From a virus: 40,460 nucleotides of DNA. Position 1 is the first letter of the stretch. Every line of letters begins with the position of its first letter. Both the position numbers and the translations under genes were made by a program. Shown here piece after piece: positions 7,098-40,460 of the stretch. The stretch lies in the UHGV virus genome UHGV-1390708; one strand, written 5' to 3'. Under the pieces are notes generated by a model. That model was not told the origin of the DNA. It searched no databases and saw only the letters and a program-made list of their open reading frames with translations.

Positions 7098-8066
7098 TTA
7101 GTAGGTTATTTTTGTTGCGAATACTTCGCCTTTTACGATGGCTGTTATGATATTTTTAGCAACATCTTCTGATGCGCCAACCTTGATAAGGTCAGCAAGT
7201 ATTTTGTTATTTACTTCTTTCCGGTGAGCTTTATCCTTTGCTCTACGCTCTTCTTCGTCCTTGATTCTTTTTTCTTCTGCTATTCTGGCTTGCTCTTTTG
7301 CTTCAGCCTCGCGACGGATTCGTTCAGCCTCCTCCTGTGCTTTTCTGCGTTCTGCTTCAATTGCTGCCTGCTTTTCTCTTTCAGCTCGTTCTGCTGCCTC
7401 TTTTGCTTCGCGCTGTGCTCGTTGCTCGGCTTCAATGCGTTCACGCTCTGCACGTTCCGCTGCGGCCTTAGCTTCTGCTTCTCGCCTTGCTGCTGCTTCA
7501 ATTTCGGCTTTTGCCTTTGCTTCGGCTTCTGCTCTGGCTTTCTCTTCAGCTTCTCTTTTTAAGCGTTCTTCATGCTCTCGCTTTTCCTGCTCCGCTTTGA
7601 GTCTTGCCTCTTCTCTTTGGCGGTCAAATTCGCGATCCATCAAAATCGCTATTTCATGGTCAGACTCAATTTGCTTTGCGAGAGCTTCAGCTGCTGCCTT
7701 AGCTTCTTCTTCGGCTTTAATCCGTGCCTGCTCCTCCTCATAATCAGTAAGAGGCTGGCGCGCCTTGGCTTTCAGTTCATCAAGGCGATCGCGCACTGTC
7801 TTGCGGTTGGCATCAATTAGCTTTGGAATTTCCTTCAGTTCAGCAACAAGGTCTTTGCCAAGACCATCGAGATATGTTTTCGTCTGCGCAACTTTATACG
7901 CCAGAGAAGCGATCTCCTTTCTGCCCTTTGCCGTTGTGATATCAGGCACAAAGGACATAACTTCACGTTCAACCTTTTGAAGGATTTCTTCAATCTGGTC
8001 GGCAGACTGAAATACAGTCATTGCATTTGCTTTTTCAATAACAACTAAATCTGTTACTTCACTCAT
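7098..8066 (-). CDS. Hypothetical coiled-coil protein with a long E/A/K/R-rich repeat region
   Basis: ORF 7098..8120 trimmed to the Met (MSEVTDLVV) preceded by GGAGG; about 170 residues of EAKA/ERAERE-type low-complexity helix. Confidence 0.7.
   Translation of the reverse strand: MSEVTDLVVIEKANAMTVFQSADQIEEILQKVEREVMSFVPDITTAKGRKEIASLAYKVAQTKTYLDGLGKDLVAELKEIPKLIDANRKTVRDRLDELKAKARQPLTDYEEEQARIKAEEEAKAAAEALAKQIESDHEIAILMDREFDRQREEARLKAEQEKREHEERLKREAEEKARAEAEAKAKAEIEAAARREAEAKAAAERAERERIEAEQRAQREAKEAAERAEREKQAAIEAERRKAQEEAERIRREAEAKEQARIAEEKRIKDEEERRAKDKAHRKEVNNKILADLIKVGASEDVAKNIITAIVKGEVFATKITY
7230..7750. repeat. Low-complexity coding repeat (GCT/GAA/AAG-rich) inside the coiled-coil gene
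   Basis: Reiterated gctgaagc / gcagaagc units visible in the sequence; they generate the spurious antisense ORFs listed in the track. Confidence 0.6.
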
Positions 8067-8078
8067 ATATCCTCCGTC

Positions 8079-8105
8079 AAAAAAATTGCCCTCACACTGG
8101 AGGGC
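8079..8105 (-). terminator. Putative intrinsic terminator in the leftward operon (tL-type)
   Basis: Hairpin gccctc-acactgg-agggc followed on the minus strand by AATTTTTTT, about 13 nt upstream of the coiled-coil gene's Shine-Dalgarno. Confidence 0.5.
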
Positions 8106-8241
8106 AAAGAAGATTTCCAATAATCAGAACAAGTCGGCTCCTGTTTAGTTACGAGCGACATTGCTCCGTGTATTCACTCGTTGGAATGAATACACAGCGC
8201 AGTGTTTATTCTGTTGTTTATGCCAAAAATAAAGGCCACCA

Positions 8242-8442
8242 TCAGGCAGCCTTGTTATTCTGTTTACCAAGTTCTCTGGCAATCATTGCCGTCGTTCGTA
8301 TTGCCCATTTATCGACATATTTCCCATCCTCCATTACAGGGAACATTTCTTCAGGCTTAACCATGCATTCCGATTGCAGCTTGCATCCATTGCATCGCTT
8401 GAATTGTCCACACCATTGATTTTTATCAATAGTCGTAGTCAT
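8242..8442 (-). CDS. ral: Ral-like restriction alleviation protein
   Basis: 66-aa ORF MTTTIDKNQWCGQFKRCNGCKLQSECM...; matches my memory of lambda Ral in size, sequence and position downstream of N. Confidence 0.6.
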   Translation of the reverse strand: MTTTIDKNQWCGQFKRCNGCKLQSECMVKPEEMFPVMEDGKYVDKWAIRTTAMIARELGKQNNKAA

Positions 8443-8570: not shown

Positions 8571-8843
8571 TCATCTTGCTGTCAGTTGTTTTGATTTCCG
8601 GTAGCCTGCCGCGTAAATGGCTACGTTTGGCAGGCAAATACTTCCACTGCATTCATCTGCCTTCTTGCAGCGAAGGCTTCCGAGTGATGCTGCTTTGTCT
8701 GCTCTGACGCAACTAGAGATCTTTAGCGCAATTTTTCGCGCAAGTCTCTGCTCTTGCATTGCCTGTTCACGTTGAGCCTGCCTGCGTGCTCTGCGGCGAT
8801 TTCTGGCGTTATCGTCAGCCAGATATGTAATGACTACTGTCAT
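8571..8843 (-). CDS. N: N-type transcription antiterminator
   Basis: N-terminal arginine-rich motif NARNRRRARRQAQREQ; GGAGG Shine-Dalgarno 6 nt upstream; nutL lies upstream in the pL transcript. Confidence 0.7.
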   Translation of the reverse strand: MTVVITYLADDNARNRRRARRQAQREQAMQEQRLARKIALKISSCVRADKAASLGSLRCKKADECSGSICLPNVAIYAAGYRKSKQLTAR

Positions 8844-11335: not shown

Positions 11336-11606
11336 GCGAAACAAAGGCTTTAATCCACCTGATACACACAAAGAAGCTAAGCGTTTGCGCTTCCTTCGTT
11401 CCATTGATGAAAGAACTCAAATATCTTTTGTGAAAGTTGCCAGAACTGAGCTTCTGAAGGCTGAGGCGAGGGCGTTGCTCCCGTCTCTACCAAAAGAGGA
11501 GGGGTATACGTTCATTCCAAACGCATTTCTGGAAAAGCTGCTCAAAGAAGACATATCCGTAAGTCAGTTTAACGATGTTCTTAAGGTCTTTCGTCAAGGC
11601 AGGTAG
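11334..11606 (+). CDS. Hypothetical protein (90 aa) between cII and the replication initiator
   Basis: MRNKGFNPPDTHKEAKRLRF...; GAGGTAA Shine-Dalgarno. The track's frame-overlapping extension was rejected. Confidence 0.55.
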   Translation: MRNKGFNPPDTHKEAKRLRFLRSIDERTQISFVKVARTELLKAEARALLPSLPKEEGYTFIPNAFLEKLLKEDISVSQFNDVLKVFRQGR

Positions 11607-11608
11607 TT

Positions 11609-12556
11609 ATGAGCAATACAGCAAAAATCTACGATTTCAGCGCCGCACACGAGCGCAGGAGCAACAGGATGGAGAACCAGAAAACTGGTTACATTCCGTT
11701 GTACCGGAGCATTCTGAAACAGTCATGGGCGAAAGATGTTTATCTTCGCACCCTGTGGGAAAACCTTCTCCTGAATGCCGCCAGAAAGCCATACAAAGCG
11801 AATTTCAAAGGTCATGAATGGCATCTGCAACCCGGTCAACTGGTTGTGACAGCAGCTGATTTAGGTCTTCAGTTATGCGACAGGCATGGCAAGCCAGCAA
11901 GCCGCGATCAGGTTGAGCGGATGCTTCAGGTTTTTGTGAAAGAGGGGATGATCTCCATTGATGGAGAGAAGCAAAAAGGTCGTGTGATCACCATCACAAA
12001 TTACCATGAATATGCTCAAAAAATGGACAATTCACCCGCACATGAAGCCGCACAAACAACCGCACATGACGCCGCACATGACGAAGCCAGTAATGGCGCG
12101 GCTTTCAGCGTACATGCCGCACATGAAAGCGCACATGAAGCCGCACAAACAACCGCACATCATGAACAAGAAGGTATTAACAAGAATATAAATAATACCC
12201 CCCTACCCCCCAATGGGGGAGGCGATGGGCAGGTTAAACCTGAACGTCGCAAGGCAGAACGAATCGACTACGAATCCTTCCTGAACGCCTACAACACCGA
12301 AGTCGGTGACAGACTGCCACACGCTGTTGCGGTCAACGAGAAACGCAAACGCCGCCTGAAGAAAATCATCCCGCAACTGAAAACGCCAAATGTGGACGGT
12401 TTCAGAGCGTATGTCAGGGCGTTTGTGCATCAGGCCAAGCCGTTTTACTTCGGAGACAACGACACGGGCTGGACGGCTGATTTTGATTACCTGCTGAGGG
12501 AAGACTCGTTAACGGGAGTTCGGGAAGGGAAGTTTGCAGACAGGGGGATTGCATGA
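11609..12556 (+). CDS. Replication initiator (O-like / P22 gene 18 analogue)
   Basis: Position between cII and the helicase; the central His/Ala-rich linker is encoded by direct repeats, an ori-in-gene arrangement like lambda O. Confidence 0.65.
12036..12170. repeat. Iteron-like direct repeats (CGCACATGA units; two ~30-bp copies)
   Basis: GCACATGAAGCCGCACAAACAACCGCACAT occurs twice (about 12036 and 12137) with shorter CGCACATGA units between. Confidence 0.6.
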
Positions 12557-13929
12557 GACAGGATATCGAAGCGAGCGTTATCGGTGGCCTGCTGATTGGT
12601 GGATTAACTCCAACCGCCAGTGACGTTCTGGCAACGCTTGAGCCGGAAGCGTTTTCAATTCCGCTCTACCGGAAAGCCTTCGAGGTTATCCGCAAGCAGG
12701 CGCGAAACAGAAACCTAATCGACGCGCTGATGGTTGCCGAGGCGTGCGGAGAGGAGCATTTCACGTCAATCCTGATGACCAGCAAAAACTGCCCGAGTGC
12801 CGCAAACCTGAAGGGATATGCCGGAATGGTCGCGGATAACTATCACCGCCGTCTGGTGCTGGACATCATGGATGAAATGCGTGAACCAATTCAGAGCGGA
12901 ACCATCGACGCATCGAGTCAGGCGATGGATGAACTTGTAAAGCGTCTTTCAGCCATCAGAAAGCCCCGTGACGAGGTTAAACCTGTACGGTTAGGGGAAA
13001 TCATCACTGACTACACTGACACGCTTGACAGGCGTCTGAGGAACGGAGAAGAGTCAGATACCCTGAAGACCGGAATCGAAGAACTTGACGCTATCACCGG
13101 AGGGATGAACGCTGAAGACCTGGTGATTATCGCCGCTCGTCCTGGTATGGGGAAAACCGAACTGGCGCTAAAGATTGCCGAAGGTGTTGCAAGCCGCGTT
13201 ATTCCTGGTTCTGACGTCCGGCGCGGAGTATTGATTTTCTCGATGGAAATGAGCGCATTGCAGATTGCAGAGCGGAGCATTGCCAACGCCGGGAGGATGT
13301 CGGTTAGCGTACTGCGAAATCCTGCATCGATGGATGACGAGGGCTGGGCACGTGTTGCTAACGGCATGAGTCAGCTTGCAGATTTGGATGTATGGGTAGT
13401 CGATGCCTCGCGGTTATCGGTCGAAGAAATACGCTCAATCGCAGAACGGCACAAACAGGAAAATCCAAACCTGTCACTCATCATGGCGGATTATCTTGGC
13501 CTGATTGAGAAGCCGAAAGCAGATCGCAACGACCTTGCAATTGCTCACATCTCCGGAAGCCTGAAGGCGATGGCGAAAGACCTGAAAACACCGGTTATCT
13601 CCCTGAGTCAGCTTTCGCGCGATGTTGAGAAGCGACCAAACAAACGCCCGACAAACGCAGATTTGCGTGATTCAGGAAGCATTGAGCAGGACGCAGACTC
13701 AATCATCATGCTCTATCGGGAAGCGGTATATGACGAGAACAGTAGCGCCGCGCCATTTGCTGAAATCATCGTGACGAAAAACCGTTTTGGTTCACTTGGT
13801 ACGGTTTACCAGCGGTTCTGCAACGGACACTTTGTTGCATGTGACCAGGATGAAGCCAGACAGATTTGCACAACATCAAATGCACCCGCTGCACGTGGCA
13901 GACGATATGCACAAGGGGCTGACGTATGA
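12553..13929 (+). CDS. Replicative DNA helicase (DnaB family)
   Basis: Walker A '[11 protein letters not shown]'; DnaB-type N and C domains; follows the initiator gene with overlapping stop and start. Confidence 0.9.
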
Positions 13930-14010: not shown

Positions 14011-14223
14011 ATGGACACCGTTAACGGAATGTGTTCAGACGCACCGCGTGCCAAGAAATGTAAATGCGGAAAATCACCGACAATATTCGACATGGATAAC
14101 GGGTGCCAAATCTACTGCGCTAACCACGCTGCTGTGGCGGCCGCGAATTATCGCAGTGCGGTAACGGAGTGGAATAACCTGAAATCTGTTAGAGAGGGAA
14201 GTCATGAAAAAACTAACCTTTGA
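14011..14223 (+). CDS. Hypothetical Cys-rich small protein
   Basis: 70-aa ORF with CKCGK...CQIYCANH; GGGGAA Shine-Dalgarno. Confidence 0.5.
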   Translation: MDTVNGMCSDAPRAKKCKCGKSPTIFDMDNGCQIYCANHAAVAAANYRSAVTEWNNLKSVREGSHEKTNL

Positions 14224-14644
14224 AATTCGATCCCCAGCACATCAGCAAAACGCTATTCACGCGGTACAGCAAATTCTTCCAGACCCAACCAAACCAATCG
14301 TAGTAACCATTCAGGAACGCAACCGCAGCTTAGACCAGAATCGAAAGCTTTGGGCTTGCCTTGGTGACGTCTCTCGTCAGGTTGAATGGCATGGGCGCTG
14401 GCTGGATGCAGAAAGCTGGAAGTGTGTGTTTACCGCAGCATTAAAGCAGCAGGACGTTGTTCCTAACCTTGCCGGGAATGGCTTTGTGGTAATAGGCCAG
14501 TCAACCAGCAGGATGCGTGTAAGCGAATTTGCGGAGTTATTAGAGCTTATACAGGCATTCGGTACAGAGCGTGGCGTTAAGTGGTCAGACGAAGCGCGAC
14601 TGGCTCTCGAATGGAAAGCGCGATGGGGAGATCGGGCAGCATGA
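14204..14644 (+). CDS. ninB: NinB recombination protein
   Basis: 146-aa ORF MKKLTFEIRSPAHQQNAIHAVQQILPDPTKP... matches lambda NinB as I recall it. Confidence 0.9.
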   Translation: MKKLTFEIRSPAHQQNAIHAVQQILPDPTKPIVVTIQERNRSLDQNRKLWACLGDVSRQVEWHGRWLDAESWKCVFTAALKQQDVVPNLAGNGFVVIGQSTSRMRVSEFAELLELIQAFGTERGVKWSDEARLALEWKARWGDRAA

Positions 14645-15168
14645 CTATCAAATCAAATACGCCAGCACACGACAAGGACTGCTGGAGAACGCCGCTTTGG
14701 CTTTTTGATGCACTGGATATTGAGTTTGGATTCTGGCTGGATTCGGCAGCGAGCGACAAAAATGCTCTGTGTGCTCACTGGCTAACTGAGGCCGACGACG
14801 CGCTCAATTCTGAGTGGGTAAGCCACGGTGCAATCTGGAATAACCCACCGTACAGCAATATCAGGCCGTGGGTGGAAAAAGCCGCTGAGCAGTGCATACA
14901 ACAGCGACAGACGGTAGTGATGCTTGTGCCAGAGGATATGTCTGTCGGATGGTTCAGCAAGGCTCTGGAGAGTGTTGACGAAGTTCGCATTATCACTGAT
15001 GGACGGATTAATTTTATCGAACCATCGACAGGGATAGAGAAGAAGGGAAACAGCAAAGGTTCCATGCTGCTGATTTGGCGACCGTTCATCAGTCCTCGAC
15101 GGATGTTTACTACCGTATCCAAAGCGGCATTGATGGCGATCGGGCATGGCGTCAGGAGGGCAGCATGA
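14641..15168 (+). CDS. DNA N6-adenine methyltransferase (phage Dam-type)
   Basis: 'NNPPYS' catalytic motif; ATG overlaps the ninB stop (ATGA). The track's 5' extension was rejected. Confidence 0.8.
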
Positions 15169-15341
15169 GACGACAGCGACGAAGTTTCACCGACATAATC
15201 TGCGAAAACTGCAAATACCTTCCAACGAAACGCTCCAGAAATAAACGCAAGCCAATACCAAAAGAATCTGACGTAAAAACCTTCAACTACACGGCTCACC
15301 TGTGGGATATCCGGTTGCTAAGACATCGTGCGAGGAAATGA
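15165..15341 (+). CDS. ninE: NinE
   Basis: [49 protein letters not shown]... matches lambda NinE from memory; AGGAGG Shine-Dalgarno. Confidence 0.8.
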
Positions 15342-17243: not shown

Positions 17244-17428
17244 ACGCCACAATTCAAACGATACCAGAGCTTCTTATCCAGACACGAGGCAATCAGACCG
17301 AAGTGGCGAGGATGCTTTCCTGCGCAAGAGGAACGGTGCTCAAGTACAACCGAGACAGCAAAGGCGAACGCCACGTAATAGTTAACGGCGTCCTGATGGT
17401 CAAGCAGGGCAAGAGAGGAAGACGATGA
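17240..17428 (+). CDS. ninH: NinH-like protein
   Basis: 'TIPELLIQTRGNQTEVARMLSCARGTVLKY' resembles lambda NinH. Confidence 0.7.
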   Translation: MNATIQTIPELLIQTRGNQTEVARMLSCARGTVLKYNRDSKGERHVIVNGVLMVKQGKRGRR

Positions 17429-18048
17429 GACTCGAAAGCGTAGCTAAATTTCATTCGCCAAAAAGCCCGATGATGAGCGACTCACCACGGGCCACGGCTT
17501 CTGACTCTCTTTCCGGTACCGATGTGATGGCTGCTATGGGGATGGCGCAATCACAGGCCGGATTCGGAATGGCTGCATTCTGTGGTAAGCACGAACTCAG
17601 CCAGAATGACAAACAAAAGACTATCAACTATCTGATGCAATTTGCACACAAGGTATCGGGGAAATACCGTGGCGTGGCAAAGCTTGAAGGAAATACTAAG
17701 GCAAAGGTACTGCAAGTGCTCGCAACATTCGCTTATGCGGATTATTGCCGTAGTGCCGCGACGCCGGGCGCAAGATGCAGAGATTGCCACGGTACAGGTC
17801 GGGCAGTTGATATAGCAAAAACAGAGCAGTGGGGGAGAGTTGTTGAGAAAGAGTGCGGAAGATGCAAAGGTGTCGGCTATTCAAGAATGCCAGCAAGCGC
17901 CGCATATCGCGCTGTAACGATGCTAATCCCAAACCTTACTCAACCCACCTGGTCACGCACTGTTAAGCCGCTGTATGACGCTCTGGTGGTGCAATGCCAC
18001 AAAGAAGAGTCAATCGCAGACAACATTTTGAATGCGGTCACACGTTAG
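17425..18048 (+). CDS. Q: Late-gene antiterminator Q
   Basis: 207-aa ORF MRLESVAKFHSPKSPMMSDSPRATASDSL... matches lambda Q as I recall it. Confidence 0.9.
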   Translation: MRLESVAKFHSPKSPMMSDSPRATASDSLSGTDVMAAMGMAQSQAGFGMAAFCGKHELSQNDKQKTINYLMQFAHKVSGKYRGVAKLEGNTKAKVLQVLATFAYADYCRSAATPGARCRDCHGTGRAVDIAKTEQWGRVVEKECGRCKGVGYSRMPASAAYRAVTMLIPNLTQPTWSRTVKPLYDALVVQCHKEESIADNILNAVTR

Positions 18049-36436: not shown

Positions 36437-36464
36437 AACCCACCTTCAGGTGGGTTTTTTGTTT
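36437..36464. terminator. Bidirectional terminator overlapping the 3' end of the Mnt-like gene
   Basis: aacccacc-ttca-ggtgggtt hairpin with T-runs on both strands. Confidence 0.5.
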
Positions 36465-36766
36465 AGCAGTTCTCTCAACTTTTCGTTCTGCTCTCTGAAC
36501 TTTTCCTGTATTTCTTTTTGCATGGCGATAACCTGGGCTTGAAGTTGAACTAGCGCATCAACATTTAGCGGAACCGAGACGCTGTTGATTTTATCTGCTA
36601 TTTCCCCGAGTGTATTTTCTGCATTCAAGGCATCTTCCAGTATCTGAACAATCTCTGAGTTCATTGATCTGCCGTTACGTTTGGCTCGTTCAGCTATAGC
36701 ATCCCGCATTCCTGCAGGAAGCCTGATATTGAACCTATCCATTTCATGACTAGGGAACTTGCTCAT
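36446..36766 (-). CDS. Mnt-like ribbon-helix-helix repressor (copy 1)
   Basis: 'FNIRLPAGMRDAIAERAKRNGRSMNSEIVQILEDAL' is an Arc/Mnt-type RHH motif; diverges from the Arc-like gene across an operator region. Confidence 0.7.
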   Translation of the reverse strand: MSKFPSHEMDRFNIRLPAGMRDAIAERAKRNGRSMNSEIVQILEDALNAENTLGEIADKINSVSVPLNVDALVQLQAQVIAMQKEIQEKFREQNEKLRELLNKKPT

Positions 36767-36877: not shown

Positions 36878-37051
36878 ATGAAAGATGTGCTTTACACAGG
36901 TCGTAAAAGTCAAAGTTTTCAGCTTCGTTTGCCAGCGCGAATGAAGGAGGAGATTAGACGTGTTGCTGAAATGGATGGAATTTCTATCAACTCTGCGATT
37001 GTGCAGCGACTGGCTAAAAGCCTGAGAGAGGAAAGAGCTAATGCCCAGTAA
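36878..37051 (+). CDS. Arc-like ribbon-helix-helix repressor
   Basis: Manual translation MKDVLYTGRKSQSFQLRLPARMKEEIRRVAEMDGISINSAIVQRLAKSLREERANAQ; GGAGG Shine-Dalgarno. Confidence 0.6.
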   Translation: MKDVLYTGRKSQSFQLRLPARMKEEIRRVAEMDGISINSAIVQRLAKSLREERANAQ

Positions 37052-37751
37052 AAATAGTGAAGCCCAGCAGTGCGCGAACACAAACTGGGCCTCTATGTCA
37101 GTAACCGTATGCAAGGAAACTAACATGAATATTGTAGCAAAATCAGATTACAACTTCCACGGAGTTGAGTTGGTGCCCACCCGTGATATGCATGGTGTTT
37201 GGTTTACATCATCTAATATTGCATCTGCACTTAAATACGCAAATAGTCGTGCAGTAACAATGATTTATAACAAGTATAGCGATGAGTTTAGCGCCGGAAT
37301 GACTCAGGTACTCGAAGTGAGTACCTCAGGAAATTATCGCAAAAAAGTGCGAGTTTTCTCACTACGCGGTGCCCACCTAATCGCGATGTTTGCTCGCACT
37401 CCGGTAGCCAAAGAGTTCCGCCGCTGGGTGCTGGATATTTTGGATCGGCAGGCAGAATGCTCACCGATTGCAAAACAGTTTACTGACGAAGAACTGGTTA
37501 ATCTCTGCTACTTACAATTGTGGATGGAGAAGAGTCAACAAATGTGCAAACACATCTACCCAGGAATGAAGCAAATTGGTTCTGAGCTTTCAGGAAGGAT
37601 TTACGATATTGCATATGAGACTCGCTACATGTCAGAAGAAACCAAGAAATCACTTCTTCGTGAAATGAAGAATCTTGATACCAACAATTTTGTCGTAAAG
37701 AACGCTCAGCCAATACTGGCAAAACTGCGCGGCGAGGAATGGATTCATTGA
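37041..37751 (+). CDS. ant: Antirepressor Ant (Bro-N-type)
   Basis: 236-aa ORF downstream of the Arc-like gene; Bro-N-like 'FHGVELVPTRDMHGVWFTSSNIASAL'. An alternative start at 37127 (MNIVAKS, AAGGAA Shine-Dalgarno) is possible. Confidence 0.7.
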   Translation: MPSKNSEAQQCANTNWASMSVTVCKETNMNIVAKSDYNFHGVELVPTRDMHGVWFTSSNIASALKYANSRAVTMIYNKYSDEFSAGMTQVLEVSTSGNYRKKVRVFSLRGAHLIAMFARTPVAKEFRRWVLDILDRQAECSPIAKQFTDEELVNLCYLQLWMEKSQQMCKHIYPGMKQIGSELSGRIYDIAYETRYMSEETKKSLLREMKNLDTNNFVVKNAQPILAKLRGEEWIH

Positions 37752-37770: not shown

Positions 37771-37801
37771 AAAAAGAAAACCGCCAGTGTGCTGCTGGCG
37801 G
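37771..37801 (-). terminator. Putative minus-strand terminator
   Basis: ccgccag-N7-ctggcgg hairpin followed on the minus strand by TTTTCTTTTT. Confidence 0.3.
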
Positions 37802-37839
37802 CCTATGTCACACCCTTACTACCACATAAGGAATGCCTA

Positions 37840-38565
37840 ATGACTTTTAAGAATGTAGCAAACATCGGATCCGTTGTCACGGATAAAACCATTGACAGCC
37901 AAAGTCTTCTGATGATGGTTAATGAAGCTCGCAAGTTATGTGGAGAGCCATCAGTACGTAACAACAAATTCATCGAGAAAATTGAGGATGAATTGGAGGG
38001 CGAGACCTACACAAAAAGTGTAGGTCGGAAAAACGGGGCTGACATTGATGTTATCTCCATGACTATCAAGCAGGCGCTTCGTGTTGCTGCTCGCGAATCT
38101 AAAGCAGTTCGCCGAACACTTGTAGACAAACTTGAAAGTATGCAGGAAGCACACATTAAAAGCGGTAAATCAGCGAGTGGACTTGTTGAGTATCGTCAAG
38201 CGCGAACATTGAAAATGACGGTTGAAGCTGTTACCAATCTGTTCGATCTGATGCCAAATCTTGCGCCTGAGGCAAAGCAGACTGCGGCAGCAAGCATAAT
38301 CAACCCGATCGTTGGTTTTAATGCAATACCTCTTCCAGCAATAGAAGAGCATTACTACTCAGCAGGGGAGGTTGCAGAGCAGCTTGGAGTAACGGCCAAC
38401 AAGATTGGTCGCATTGCTAACGCAAACAACCTCAAAACTGAGCAGTACGGCAAGTTCTTCCTAGATAAATCTGCGCATTCCAGCAAACAGGTAGAGGCGT
38501 TCCGCTACAATGCGGAAGGTGTTAAAGCACTACAACACCTGATTCATGGGAGTAATGTTGCATAA
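37840..38565 (+). CDS. Antirepressor-like protein (KilA-C-like C-terminus)
   Basis: ORF 37789..38565 trimmed to MTFKNVANIG (AAGGAA Shine-Dalgarno); the C-terminus 'YYSAGEVAEQLGVTANKIGRIANANNLKT' resembles KilA-C-type domains. Confidence 0.55.
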   Translation: MTFKNVANIGSVVTDKTIDSQSLLMMVNEARKLCGEPSVRNNKFIEKIEDELEGETYTKSVGRKNGADIDVISMTIKQALRVAARESKAVRRTLVDKLESMQEAHIKSGKSASGLVEYRQARTLKMTVEAVTNLFDLMPNLAPEAKQTAAASIINPIVGFNAIPLPAIEEHYYSAGEVAEQLGVTANKIGRIANANNLKTEQYGKFFLDKSAHSSKQVEAFRYNAEGVKALQHLIHGSNVA

Positions 38566-38794: not shown

Positions 38795-38817
38795 ACCCGC
38801 TTAATCGCGGGTTTTTT
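38795..38817 (+). terminator. Intrinsic terminator
   Basis: acccgc-ttaatc-gcgggt hairpin followed by TTTTTT. Confidence 0.65.
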
Positions 38818-39058
38818 CTTTTCTAAGGATATCAGCCACAACTTCTTTTACTCGTTCCGAGATTAATGAGGCCAGCCTCTCTTCTTCATCACGATACCCG
38901 CTTACAGGTGATGGTTTGGAGAGTGATTCTTCCATCGTAGCCACAATTTCGGAATTGATAGACCTGTTATTCATTTTTGCACGTTGCTTAATCTTAGCGT
39001 GCAACTCGTGCGTAAGCCTCAAGTGGAACTGCGCCTCATCGTATTTGCTGTACATCAT
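38801..39058 (-). CDS. mnt: Mnt repressor (copy 2)
   Basis: 'NNRSINSEIVATMEESLSKPSPVSGYRDEEERLA' resembles P22 Mnt ('NGRSMNSE...SKPSPVTGYRNDAERLA'); start at the Met preceded by GAGG. Confidence 0.75.
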   Translation of the reverse strand: MMYSKYDEAQFHLRLTHELHAKIKQRAKMNNRSINSEIVATMEESLSKPSPVSGYRDEEERLASLISERVKEVVADILRKEKTRD

Positions 39059-39190
39059 CAATGCCTCACCAAATGGGTGGAATGGCATCGTAAAACCTAC
39101 TGTACAAATCAACAATCGTACCATTTCGGTATGCAACAAACACCAACCGTAGCCATGCTGCGGCGATTCCTTGTATCTGGAGCAAATTAA

Positions 39191-40460
39191 ATGACAGATT
39201 CAATAAATGCCAATGTTGTAGTAAGCATGCCTTCGCAACTCTTCACTATGGCGCGTTCTTTTAAAGCGGTTGCCAATGGCAAAATTTATATCGGAAAAAT
39301 TGACACTGACCCGGTAAATCCTGAAAACCAGATTCAGGTTTATGTAGAGAACGAAGACGGTTCTCACGTTCCTGTTTCGCAACCAATCATCATTAACGCT
39401 GCTGGTTACCCAGTATATAACGGACAGATTGCCAAATTCGTAACTGTGCAAGGTCATTCGATGGCTGTTTATGATACGTACGGTGCGCAGCAGTTCTATT
39501 TTCCTAATGTGCTGAAGTATGACCCTGACCAGTTCCGGCAGGAGCTAGAGAGAGAGTTTGCAAGCGGGGCATTCCCTGAAACAGTAAAGTATAAGTATGG
39601 ATTACCATCTGTTGTTGATGGTGCCGTATACAGAACTGTTCAGGATAAGCTTGATGATTTTGTGTTCCTTGAGGATTTCGGAGGAAAAGACGACGGAGGT
39701 ATTACTGATAACTCTTTAGCATTTAAGAAGGCGTTTGCATCAGGTGCTAAGAAAATTTATCTCAGAGGATCTGGTGTTTATGCCATGGCTACTCGTGATA
39801 TTGAGTTGCCTGCCAGGTATGAAATTATAGGTAATGCAAAAAATCCAGAGATTAAATATCTAGGTTCTGATTCAACCTTCACTATGTTTACCCTTACAGG
39901 GTCTGGCCCGGCTGCTAGTCAGTGGAAACAGGGTGGCATCTTTAGGGATGTGATCATTTCATCTGATACAGTAATTAACTGGATGGTTTGCCGACATGTC
40001 CAGAACTTAGATTTCGACAGAGTGTACTTTTACAACTCAAGAACTTTAATGAACAACTATCACTATGTTAACTTCTTTAGATGTGAACGTTGGTCGAGCG
40101 GATTTGAAGGCAGATCAGACCTTAACACAGTAAATTTCATTAGCGAGTCTCCAAAATTTTTGATGTGCTTTAGCTCAAACTCACCTATAGATGTTTGGGA
40201 TACAGCAGACCTTAGTATCACTTTCTGCACCTTTTTTGCGGGAGATTATGCAGTACAGACTAAAGTTACTCTGGTATCGCCAACAGCGCTGGACCAATTT
40301 GCTGGATACCAGGTATTTATATCCAACTCTGTTTTTGATGCAGTTTCTGGTAGCGCATGGTTACTTAACGGCATTGCGTACGGATCTATCATTGGTAACT
40401 TTGTGTCATCTGGGCGTGATGCGACAGCTTCCGGTGCTGTTGTTGATGGTGTCCGTTCAA
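39191..40460 (+). CDS. Tailspike protein (3' end truncated by the window)
   Basis: N-terminus 'ANVVVS...[35 protein letters not shown]...VLKYDPDQ' matches the P22 tailspike head-binding domain from memory; the downstream domain differs from P22; no stop before the window end. Confidence 0.85.

Follow-up and report, generated by a model that had tools for sequence, protein, structure and literature searches.

The window, i.e., the whole stretch of 40,460 nucleotides that we analyzed, stems by its sequence from an E. coli prophage that is lambdoid and P22-like. The top overall relatives are CUS-3, HF4s, Kapi1, and HK620, with ~96–97% identity in mosaic blocks, and the backbone is of the P22-like (CUS-3/HK620-like) type. 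The genes relevant to this analysis are the following:

424–1617: integrase, near the left end of the window
8242–8442, minus strand: ral, restriction alleviation protein (PF11058, E 1.6e-48, profile positions 1–66 of 66; PHROG 1055)
8571–8843, minus strand: N antiterminator (PF25694, E 2.7e-17), closely followed by ral in the leftward operon
11609–13929: replication genes O/P, upstream of dam
14204–14644, plus strand: ninB, Orf-family recombination mediator (PF05772, E 1.1e-54), upstream neighbor of dam
14641–15168, plus strand: dam, predicted orphan phage N6-adenine DNA methyltransferase of the HP1/T1/VT2 Dam family (PF05869, TIGR01712, identity to the VT2-Sakai protein)
15165–15341, plus strand: ninE (PF05322, E 1.4e-41), downstream neighbor of dam
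17425–18048, plus strand: Q antiterminator (PF03589, E 6e-57), closing the nin region that holds dam

Downstream of dam, the gene order is ninE, ninX, ninF, a Roi/antirepressor-like gene (roi/ant), ybcO, rusA, ninH, and Q. The window covers the prophage from the integrase into the probable tailspike gene, and the part from the tailspike C-terminus to attR lies outside. At the right end, a 423-aa open ORF (39190–40460) runs past the last nucleotide and, given its location after an immI-like region, probably represents the tailspike gene. This P22 immI-like region (36446–36766, minus strand; 37041–37751, plus; 37789–38565, plus; 38801–39139, minus) contains two small Arc/Mnt-like repressors, together with two genes of the antirepressor type (Bro-N/P22_AR_C; PHROG 1726 anti-repressor). 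Between ral and the recombination genes, positions 7098–8120 (minus strand) encode a 340-aa protein with a long, charged, repetitive middle part rich in Glu, Ala, Lys, and Arg. PHROGs lists it as a protein of unknown function, and it had no match in Pfam or PADLOC. No tRNA genes were found within the window.

The dam ORF is intact and extends on the plus strand from an ATG at 14641 to a TGA ending at 15168, corresponding to 528 nt and 175 aa. The program-made ORF list begins this ORF at an upstream GTG (14581). We adopted the ATG at 14641, which yields a gene of the same length as the annotated dam gene of phage VT2-Sakai. Both ends of the gene overlap with its neighbors, as the dam ATG shares an ATGA (14641–14644) with the ninB stop codon, and the dam stop codon shares another ATGA (15165–15168) with the ninE start codon. 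Such tight stop/start coupling has been described as typical of nin regions in a paper on phage L (PMC8022706). The following features lie within or next to the gene:

14627–14630, plus strand: GGAG within the 3′ end of ninB, which may serve dam as a Shine-Dalgarno sequence (10 nt before the ATG)
14634–14644, plus strand: left copy of GGGCAGCATGA, an 11-bp direct repeat, spanning the ATGA of the ninB stop and the dam start
14731–14754, plus strand: FWLDSAAS (residues 31–38), candidate degenerate AdoMet-binding motif I, assigned by inspection
14842–14853, plus strand: NPPY (N68-P69-P70-Y71), catalytic motif IV, read from the sequence and invariant in 27 homologues
15158–15168, plus strand: right copy of GGGCAGCATGA, spanning the ATGA of the dam stop and the ninE start

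The dam product matched the Pfam profile PF05869, 'DNA N-6-adenine-methyltransferase (Dam)', over positions 1–167 of 169 (E 2.2e-64; 216.7 bits, with the cut-off at 28.1). It also matched the NCBIfam equivalog TIGR01712 (phage_N6A_met, 'phage N-6-adenine-methyltransferase') over its full length, positions 1–165 of 165, with 266.3 bits (cut-off, 97.05 bits). PHROG 111, 'DNA methyltransferase', gave an E value of 2e-87, and the highest-ranked PADLOC models were those for an 'orphan methyltransferase'. By these profile matches, the protein is a member of the phage N-6-adenine methyltransferase family PF05869/TIGR01712. The original prediction, which was made from the DNA letters and placed an NPPY-motif methyltransferase between ninB and ninE, was thus correct regarding the gene, its two neighbors as identified by PF05772 and PF05322, and the motif at residues 68–71. 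As a side observation, the database entries P0002, P0005, P0011, P0015, and P0022 contain a Dam domain fused to NinE, CII-like, RusA, or NinB domains. These entries are probably frameshift or read-through calls at the ATGA overlaps, or mosaic recombinants.

In an alignment of 27 homologues, the most distant of which had 58% identity, residues F31, L33, D34, and A36 of the FWLDSAAS stretch were invariant. On inspection of the alignment, NPPY comes after a TP...LD.AA block, and a recognition domain inserted into the protein was not seen. The TP...LD.AA block presumably corresponds to motif I, which would give the order X/I, then IV. An AF2 model of the protein was of moderate quality (pLDDT 75.7, pTM 0.78). 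Residues 30–50 had pLDDT values near 50, and the stretch from the N-terminal motif to NPPY was poorly defined. A Foldseek search of the PDB with this model yielded weak matches (best E 5e-3, TM ≤ 0.53), the leading ones of which were all amino- or N6-adenine methyltransferases, namely TrmM, PCIF1, CamA, E. coli Dam, and CcrM. These matches agree with a minimal Rossmann-type methyltransferase but are too weak to assign a class or to model DNA recognition. A sequence search of the PDB with the dam protein returned no related solved structure (best E ≥ 0.24, irrelevant matches).

The closest known relative is M.EcoVT2Dam, the dam product of phage VT2-Sakai (BAA94133). The two proteins share 98.3% amino-acid identity across all 175 residues, and both 528-nt genes lie in the order ninB-dam-ninE with overlapping stop and start codons. 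They differ by three conservative substitutions, R16Q, I129L, and H169Q, all of which fall outside the invariant columns of the 27-sequence alignment. VT2-Sakai is an Stx-converting phage, whereas the backbone analyzed here is P22-like. The Dam protein of phage Phi24B is 100% identical to that of VT2-Sakai, and the 933W homologue (L0094) is 97.7% identical to the protein studied here and encoded in the same ninB-dam-ninE order. The VT2-Sakai record carries the annotation 'dam: DNA N-6-adenine-methyltransferase; similar to 933W L0094, HP1 Orf13 and T1 M.T1'. Both of the more distant enzymes named there, i.e., the Dam proteins of Haemophilus phage HP1 (orf13; 38% identity, E 1e-32) and coliphage T1 (M.EcoT1Dam; 33% identity, E 3e-26), belong to the same family and are orphan phage enzymes. 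The TP...LD.AA, NPPYS, and C-terminal GR..F...NSKGS blocks are common to all of them. T1 Dam is longer (237 aa), being extended at its N-terminus and carrying an insertion. The genomic contexts differ as well, since HP1 Dam is encoded in an early operon and T1 Dam in the early region.

The VT2 enzyme was cloned by Radlinska and Bujnicki (2001), with reference to whom M.EcoVT2Dam 'is known to target 5'-GATC-3'' in later methylome papers (PMC6602927). M.EcoVT2Dam is also listed among the phage Dam-like enzymes in PMC7556043. Because the protein studied here is nearly identical to M.EcoVT2Dam, we infer from this identity and the cited statements that it methylates the N6 position of adenine in GATC. 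The predicted product, m6A in GATC, is shared, as is the orphan status, with the host Dam of E. coli (alpha class, PF02086) and to the T4 and P1 Dam enzymes. A PDB sequence search, however, detected no similarity to E. coli Dam, and the Foldseek match was weak (E 0.07–0.18, TM ~0.3). The motif order also differs from that of host Dam, as the phage protein has its putative motif I before NPPY and lacks an inserted recognition domain. The phage and host enzymes therefore look like a case of convergence on the same specificity rather than members of a common family.

The gene had also been described as lacking an adjacent restriction gene, and this held true. The genes adjoining dam are ninB and ninE, neither the nin genes nor the rest of the window yielded a restriction endonuclease, and ten uncharacterized ORFs of the window had no restriction or defense match in PHROGs or PADLOC. 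The only nearby nucleases are RusA and YbcO, which are ordinary nin-region genes that also occur in CUS-3 and other lambdoid phages. Within the window, which ends before the stretch from the tailspike C-terminus to attR, dam is an orphan methyltransferase. A type II restriction-modification pairing was not observed, as the window holds no endonuclease partner and the cassette is solitary in unrelated backbones. Because it occurs in so many of these, a linked endonuclease is very unlikely.

The second gene named in the original prediction, described there as Ral-like, is ral itself. Its product is identical to lambda Ral (NP_040622) in 66 of 66 residues, with nothing to distinguish the two at the protein level, and in both phages the gene closely follows N in the leftward (pL) operon. 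It is encoded on the minus strand only; the plus-strand translation of 8242–8442 had no Pfam match. As cited in PMC8022706, lambda Ral counteracts type I (EcoKI/EcoBI) restriction in that it stimulates methylation of unmodified DNA, and the identical protein encoded here would be expected to relieve type I restriction in the same way. The two genes together had been taken to suggest two anti-restriction strategies. Both are present, and a narrow, GATC-related protection by dam is plausible, but nothing links it to ral. The ral gene lies in the leftward operon beside N, while dam is part of the rightward nin region, and the closest relative, CUS-3, carries ral and no dam. The two genes appear to be mosaic modules that are independent of each other, and not a paired strategy. 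The joint occurrence of a methylase and Ral in lambdoid phages of E. coli has already been reported on the basis of automated anti-defense annotation (PMC12502783).

The direct repeat at the borders of dam is rare. Where 0.04 copies of GGGCAGCATGA would be expected in the window, there are exactly two, and these delimit a cassette of 524 bp. In CUS-3, ninB is joined straight to ninE, and a single copy of GGGCGGCATGA, which differs from GGGCAGCATGA by one mismatch, is located at the junction (11562–11572) and followed by the same ninE sequence. The 3′ end of lambda ninB reads GGGCTGCATGA. An exact match to the 'empty-site' 19-mer was not found in the viral contigs searched. The arrangement suggests that the 524-bp dam cassette was gained or lost through recombination at a short conserved boundary sequence, and it looks like an example of the known lambdoid mosaicism.

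The cassette is widespread. At a nucleotide identity of at least 95%, dam was present in 1566 of 5426 complete E. coli genomes (~29%), with up to five copies per genome, which are annotated as 'phage N-6-adenine-methyltransferase' and have NinB and NinE at their sides. A tblastn search of phage records yielded 244 records with 95–99% identity, including VT2-Sakai, 933W, HK97, SfI, Sf101, and many Stx1 and Stx2 phages. The ninB-dam-ninE order was kept in all tblastn matches examined, and the protein database contains thousands of members of the family. The lambdoid backgrounds are highly varied and comprise HK97, SfI, Stx phages, and P22-like phages. This diversity, together with the number of E. 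coli genomes carrying the gene, argues that the dam cassette travels alone.

GATC is the site that is already methylated by the Dam enzyme of the E. coli host. The role of the phage enzyme is therefore likely to be narrow, and a broad evasion of restriction is unlikely. Given the reported specificity, self-methylation can only shield the phage from nucleases whose targets are GATC-containing sites in the un- or hemi-methylated state. The earlier proposal of self-methylation against restriction is thus plausible for GATC-type nucleases and fails as a means of general restriction evasion. The role of phage Dam enzymes has been described as not well understood (PMC7556043).

We consider it likely that dam encodes an orphan GATC methylase of the HP1/T1/VT2 type, which acts as a lytic, delayed-early function, tops up the GATC methylation of the phage DNA, and may thereby protect it from nucleases. 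The timing is deduced from the rightward orientation of dam, its position between O/P and Q, and its ATGA coupling to ninB and ninE. The protein would accordingly be made as a delayed-early product during lytic replication, with the gene largely silent in the repressed prophage. During the lytic cycle, host Dam is outpaced by phage replication, leaving GATC sites on the phage DNA under-methylated, and the phage enzyme would complement the methylation of replicating and packaged DNA. Virion DNA of P22 and lambda is indeed under-methylated by Dam (PMC8022706). Nanopore sequencing of lambda DNA revealed methylation of 46% of GATC, which rose to 77% when Dam was over-produced (bioRxiv 10.1101/2025.08.29.673000). 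The likeliest benefit would be that phage DNA is guarded from nucleases of un- or hemi-methylated GATC. Candidates are restriction enzymes of the MboI/DpnII type, which are possible in a Dam+ host, and MutH. The MutH branch is weakened by the same nanopore study, in which the raised GATC methylation left the outcome of mismatch repair in lambda unchanged (bioRxiv 10.1101/2025.08.29.673000). Whatever the benefit, dam is dispensable, because the closest relative, CUS-3, does without it. In the literature, we found no report of a fitness or plating defect in a lambdoid phage devoid of dam.

The window itself contains 87 GATC sites, evenly spread along its length, against 169 ± 12 expected from dinucleotide-preserving shuffles, corresponding to an approximately twofold under-representation. 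Among the sixteen 4-base palindromes, GATC is the most depleted one, with an observed/expected ratio of 0.42, followed by GGCC (0.51) and CTAG (0.53). The known avoidance of GATC in enterophages thus persists in a phage with its own GATC methylase. In PMC5014478, MutH is mentioned as a proposed cause of counter-selection against GATC in enterophages (citing Deschavanne & Radman, 1991), and the avoidance is described as a Dam/MutH-related counter-selection (citing the same authors and McClelland, 1984).

Alternatively, although this is unlikely, the phage enzyme might be mainly regulatory. It would then add to the activity of host Dam in lysogens or when the phage switches between lysis and lysogeny, and would stabilize lysogeny or tune phage promoters via GATC methylation. 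Phi24B Dam was detected when lysogen cultures were immunoscreened, and in the authors' view it may supplement host Dam (PMC3342100). The same paper refers to Murphy et al. (2008) for the requirement of host Dam for stable 933W lysogeny. The Phi24B protein detected in lysogen cultures could result from spontaneous induction or from genuine lysogenic expression. The location of dam downstream of pR and the N-dependent terminators, however, predicts that the gene is repressed in the lysogen, and expression of Phi24B dam changed significantly upon induction (PMC3342100). Furthermore, the dam cassette is missing from close relatives that still lysogenize, such as CUS-3.

Less probable still is a dedicated role of the cassette in counter-defense against a so-far unrecognized class of host nucleases or sensors of under-methylated GATC in replicating phage DNA, in which case its frequent gain and loss at the 11-bp repeat would track the distribution of these systems in E. 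coli. In a weaker variant of this idea, the three substitutions relative to M.EcoVT2Dam could alter the specificity of the enzyme.

We regard it as very improbable that the enzyme has a relaxed or non-GATC specificity and confers wide protection from many restriction systems. Phage and prophage adenine methylases that act almost independently of sequence do exist, as exemplified by Hia5-type enzymes (PMC3299994) and the enzyme of the Serratia prophage OS31 (PMC7556043), and the 175-aa dam protein has no obvious separate target-recognition domain. However, M.EcoVT2Dam, with its 98.3% identity, is reported to be GATC-specific, and the relatives named in the VT2-Sakai record, HP1 orf13 and T1 M.T1, are both termed Dam enzymes in the literature. 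Hia5-type enzymes are moreover set apart by their description, which includes a DPPY motif, an FxGxG motif, and a region of ~90 residues at the target-recognition position. The promiscuous methylases M.EcoGIX and Hia5 were also considered as possible members of PF05869 and rejected on their literature descriptions, M.EcoGIX being described as plasmid-borne and single-strand-specific and Hia5 (PMC3299994) as having DPPY, FxGxG, and the long region at the target-recognition position.

Finally, dam could belong to a restriction-modification system and have its partner endonuclease beyond the right end of the window, where the stretch from the tailspike C-terminus to attR is unseen, but this is scarcely credible. 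Hundreds of phages and 1566 E. coli genomes, whose late regions vary, have the cassette directly between ninB and ninE. No restriction endonuclease was found in the window, the top PADLOC matches are orphan-methylase models, and a GATC-cutting, methylation-sensitive enzyme would be neutralized by host Dam anyway.

Databases and literature have covered dam since about 1999–2001, including the family to which it belongs, its likely specificity, and where it lies in the nin region, and annotation pipelines name the gene automatically. As a discovery, dam matters little here, since it is an ordinary gene that already has a name. On what a phage might gain from a methylase with the specificity of its host's Dam, the only help from the window is the comparison with CUS-3. 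Apart from dam, the nin regions of the two phages have the same gene order and ~97% DNA identity, and the phage described here, which carries dam, and CUS-3, which does not, form a natural with/without pair.
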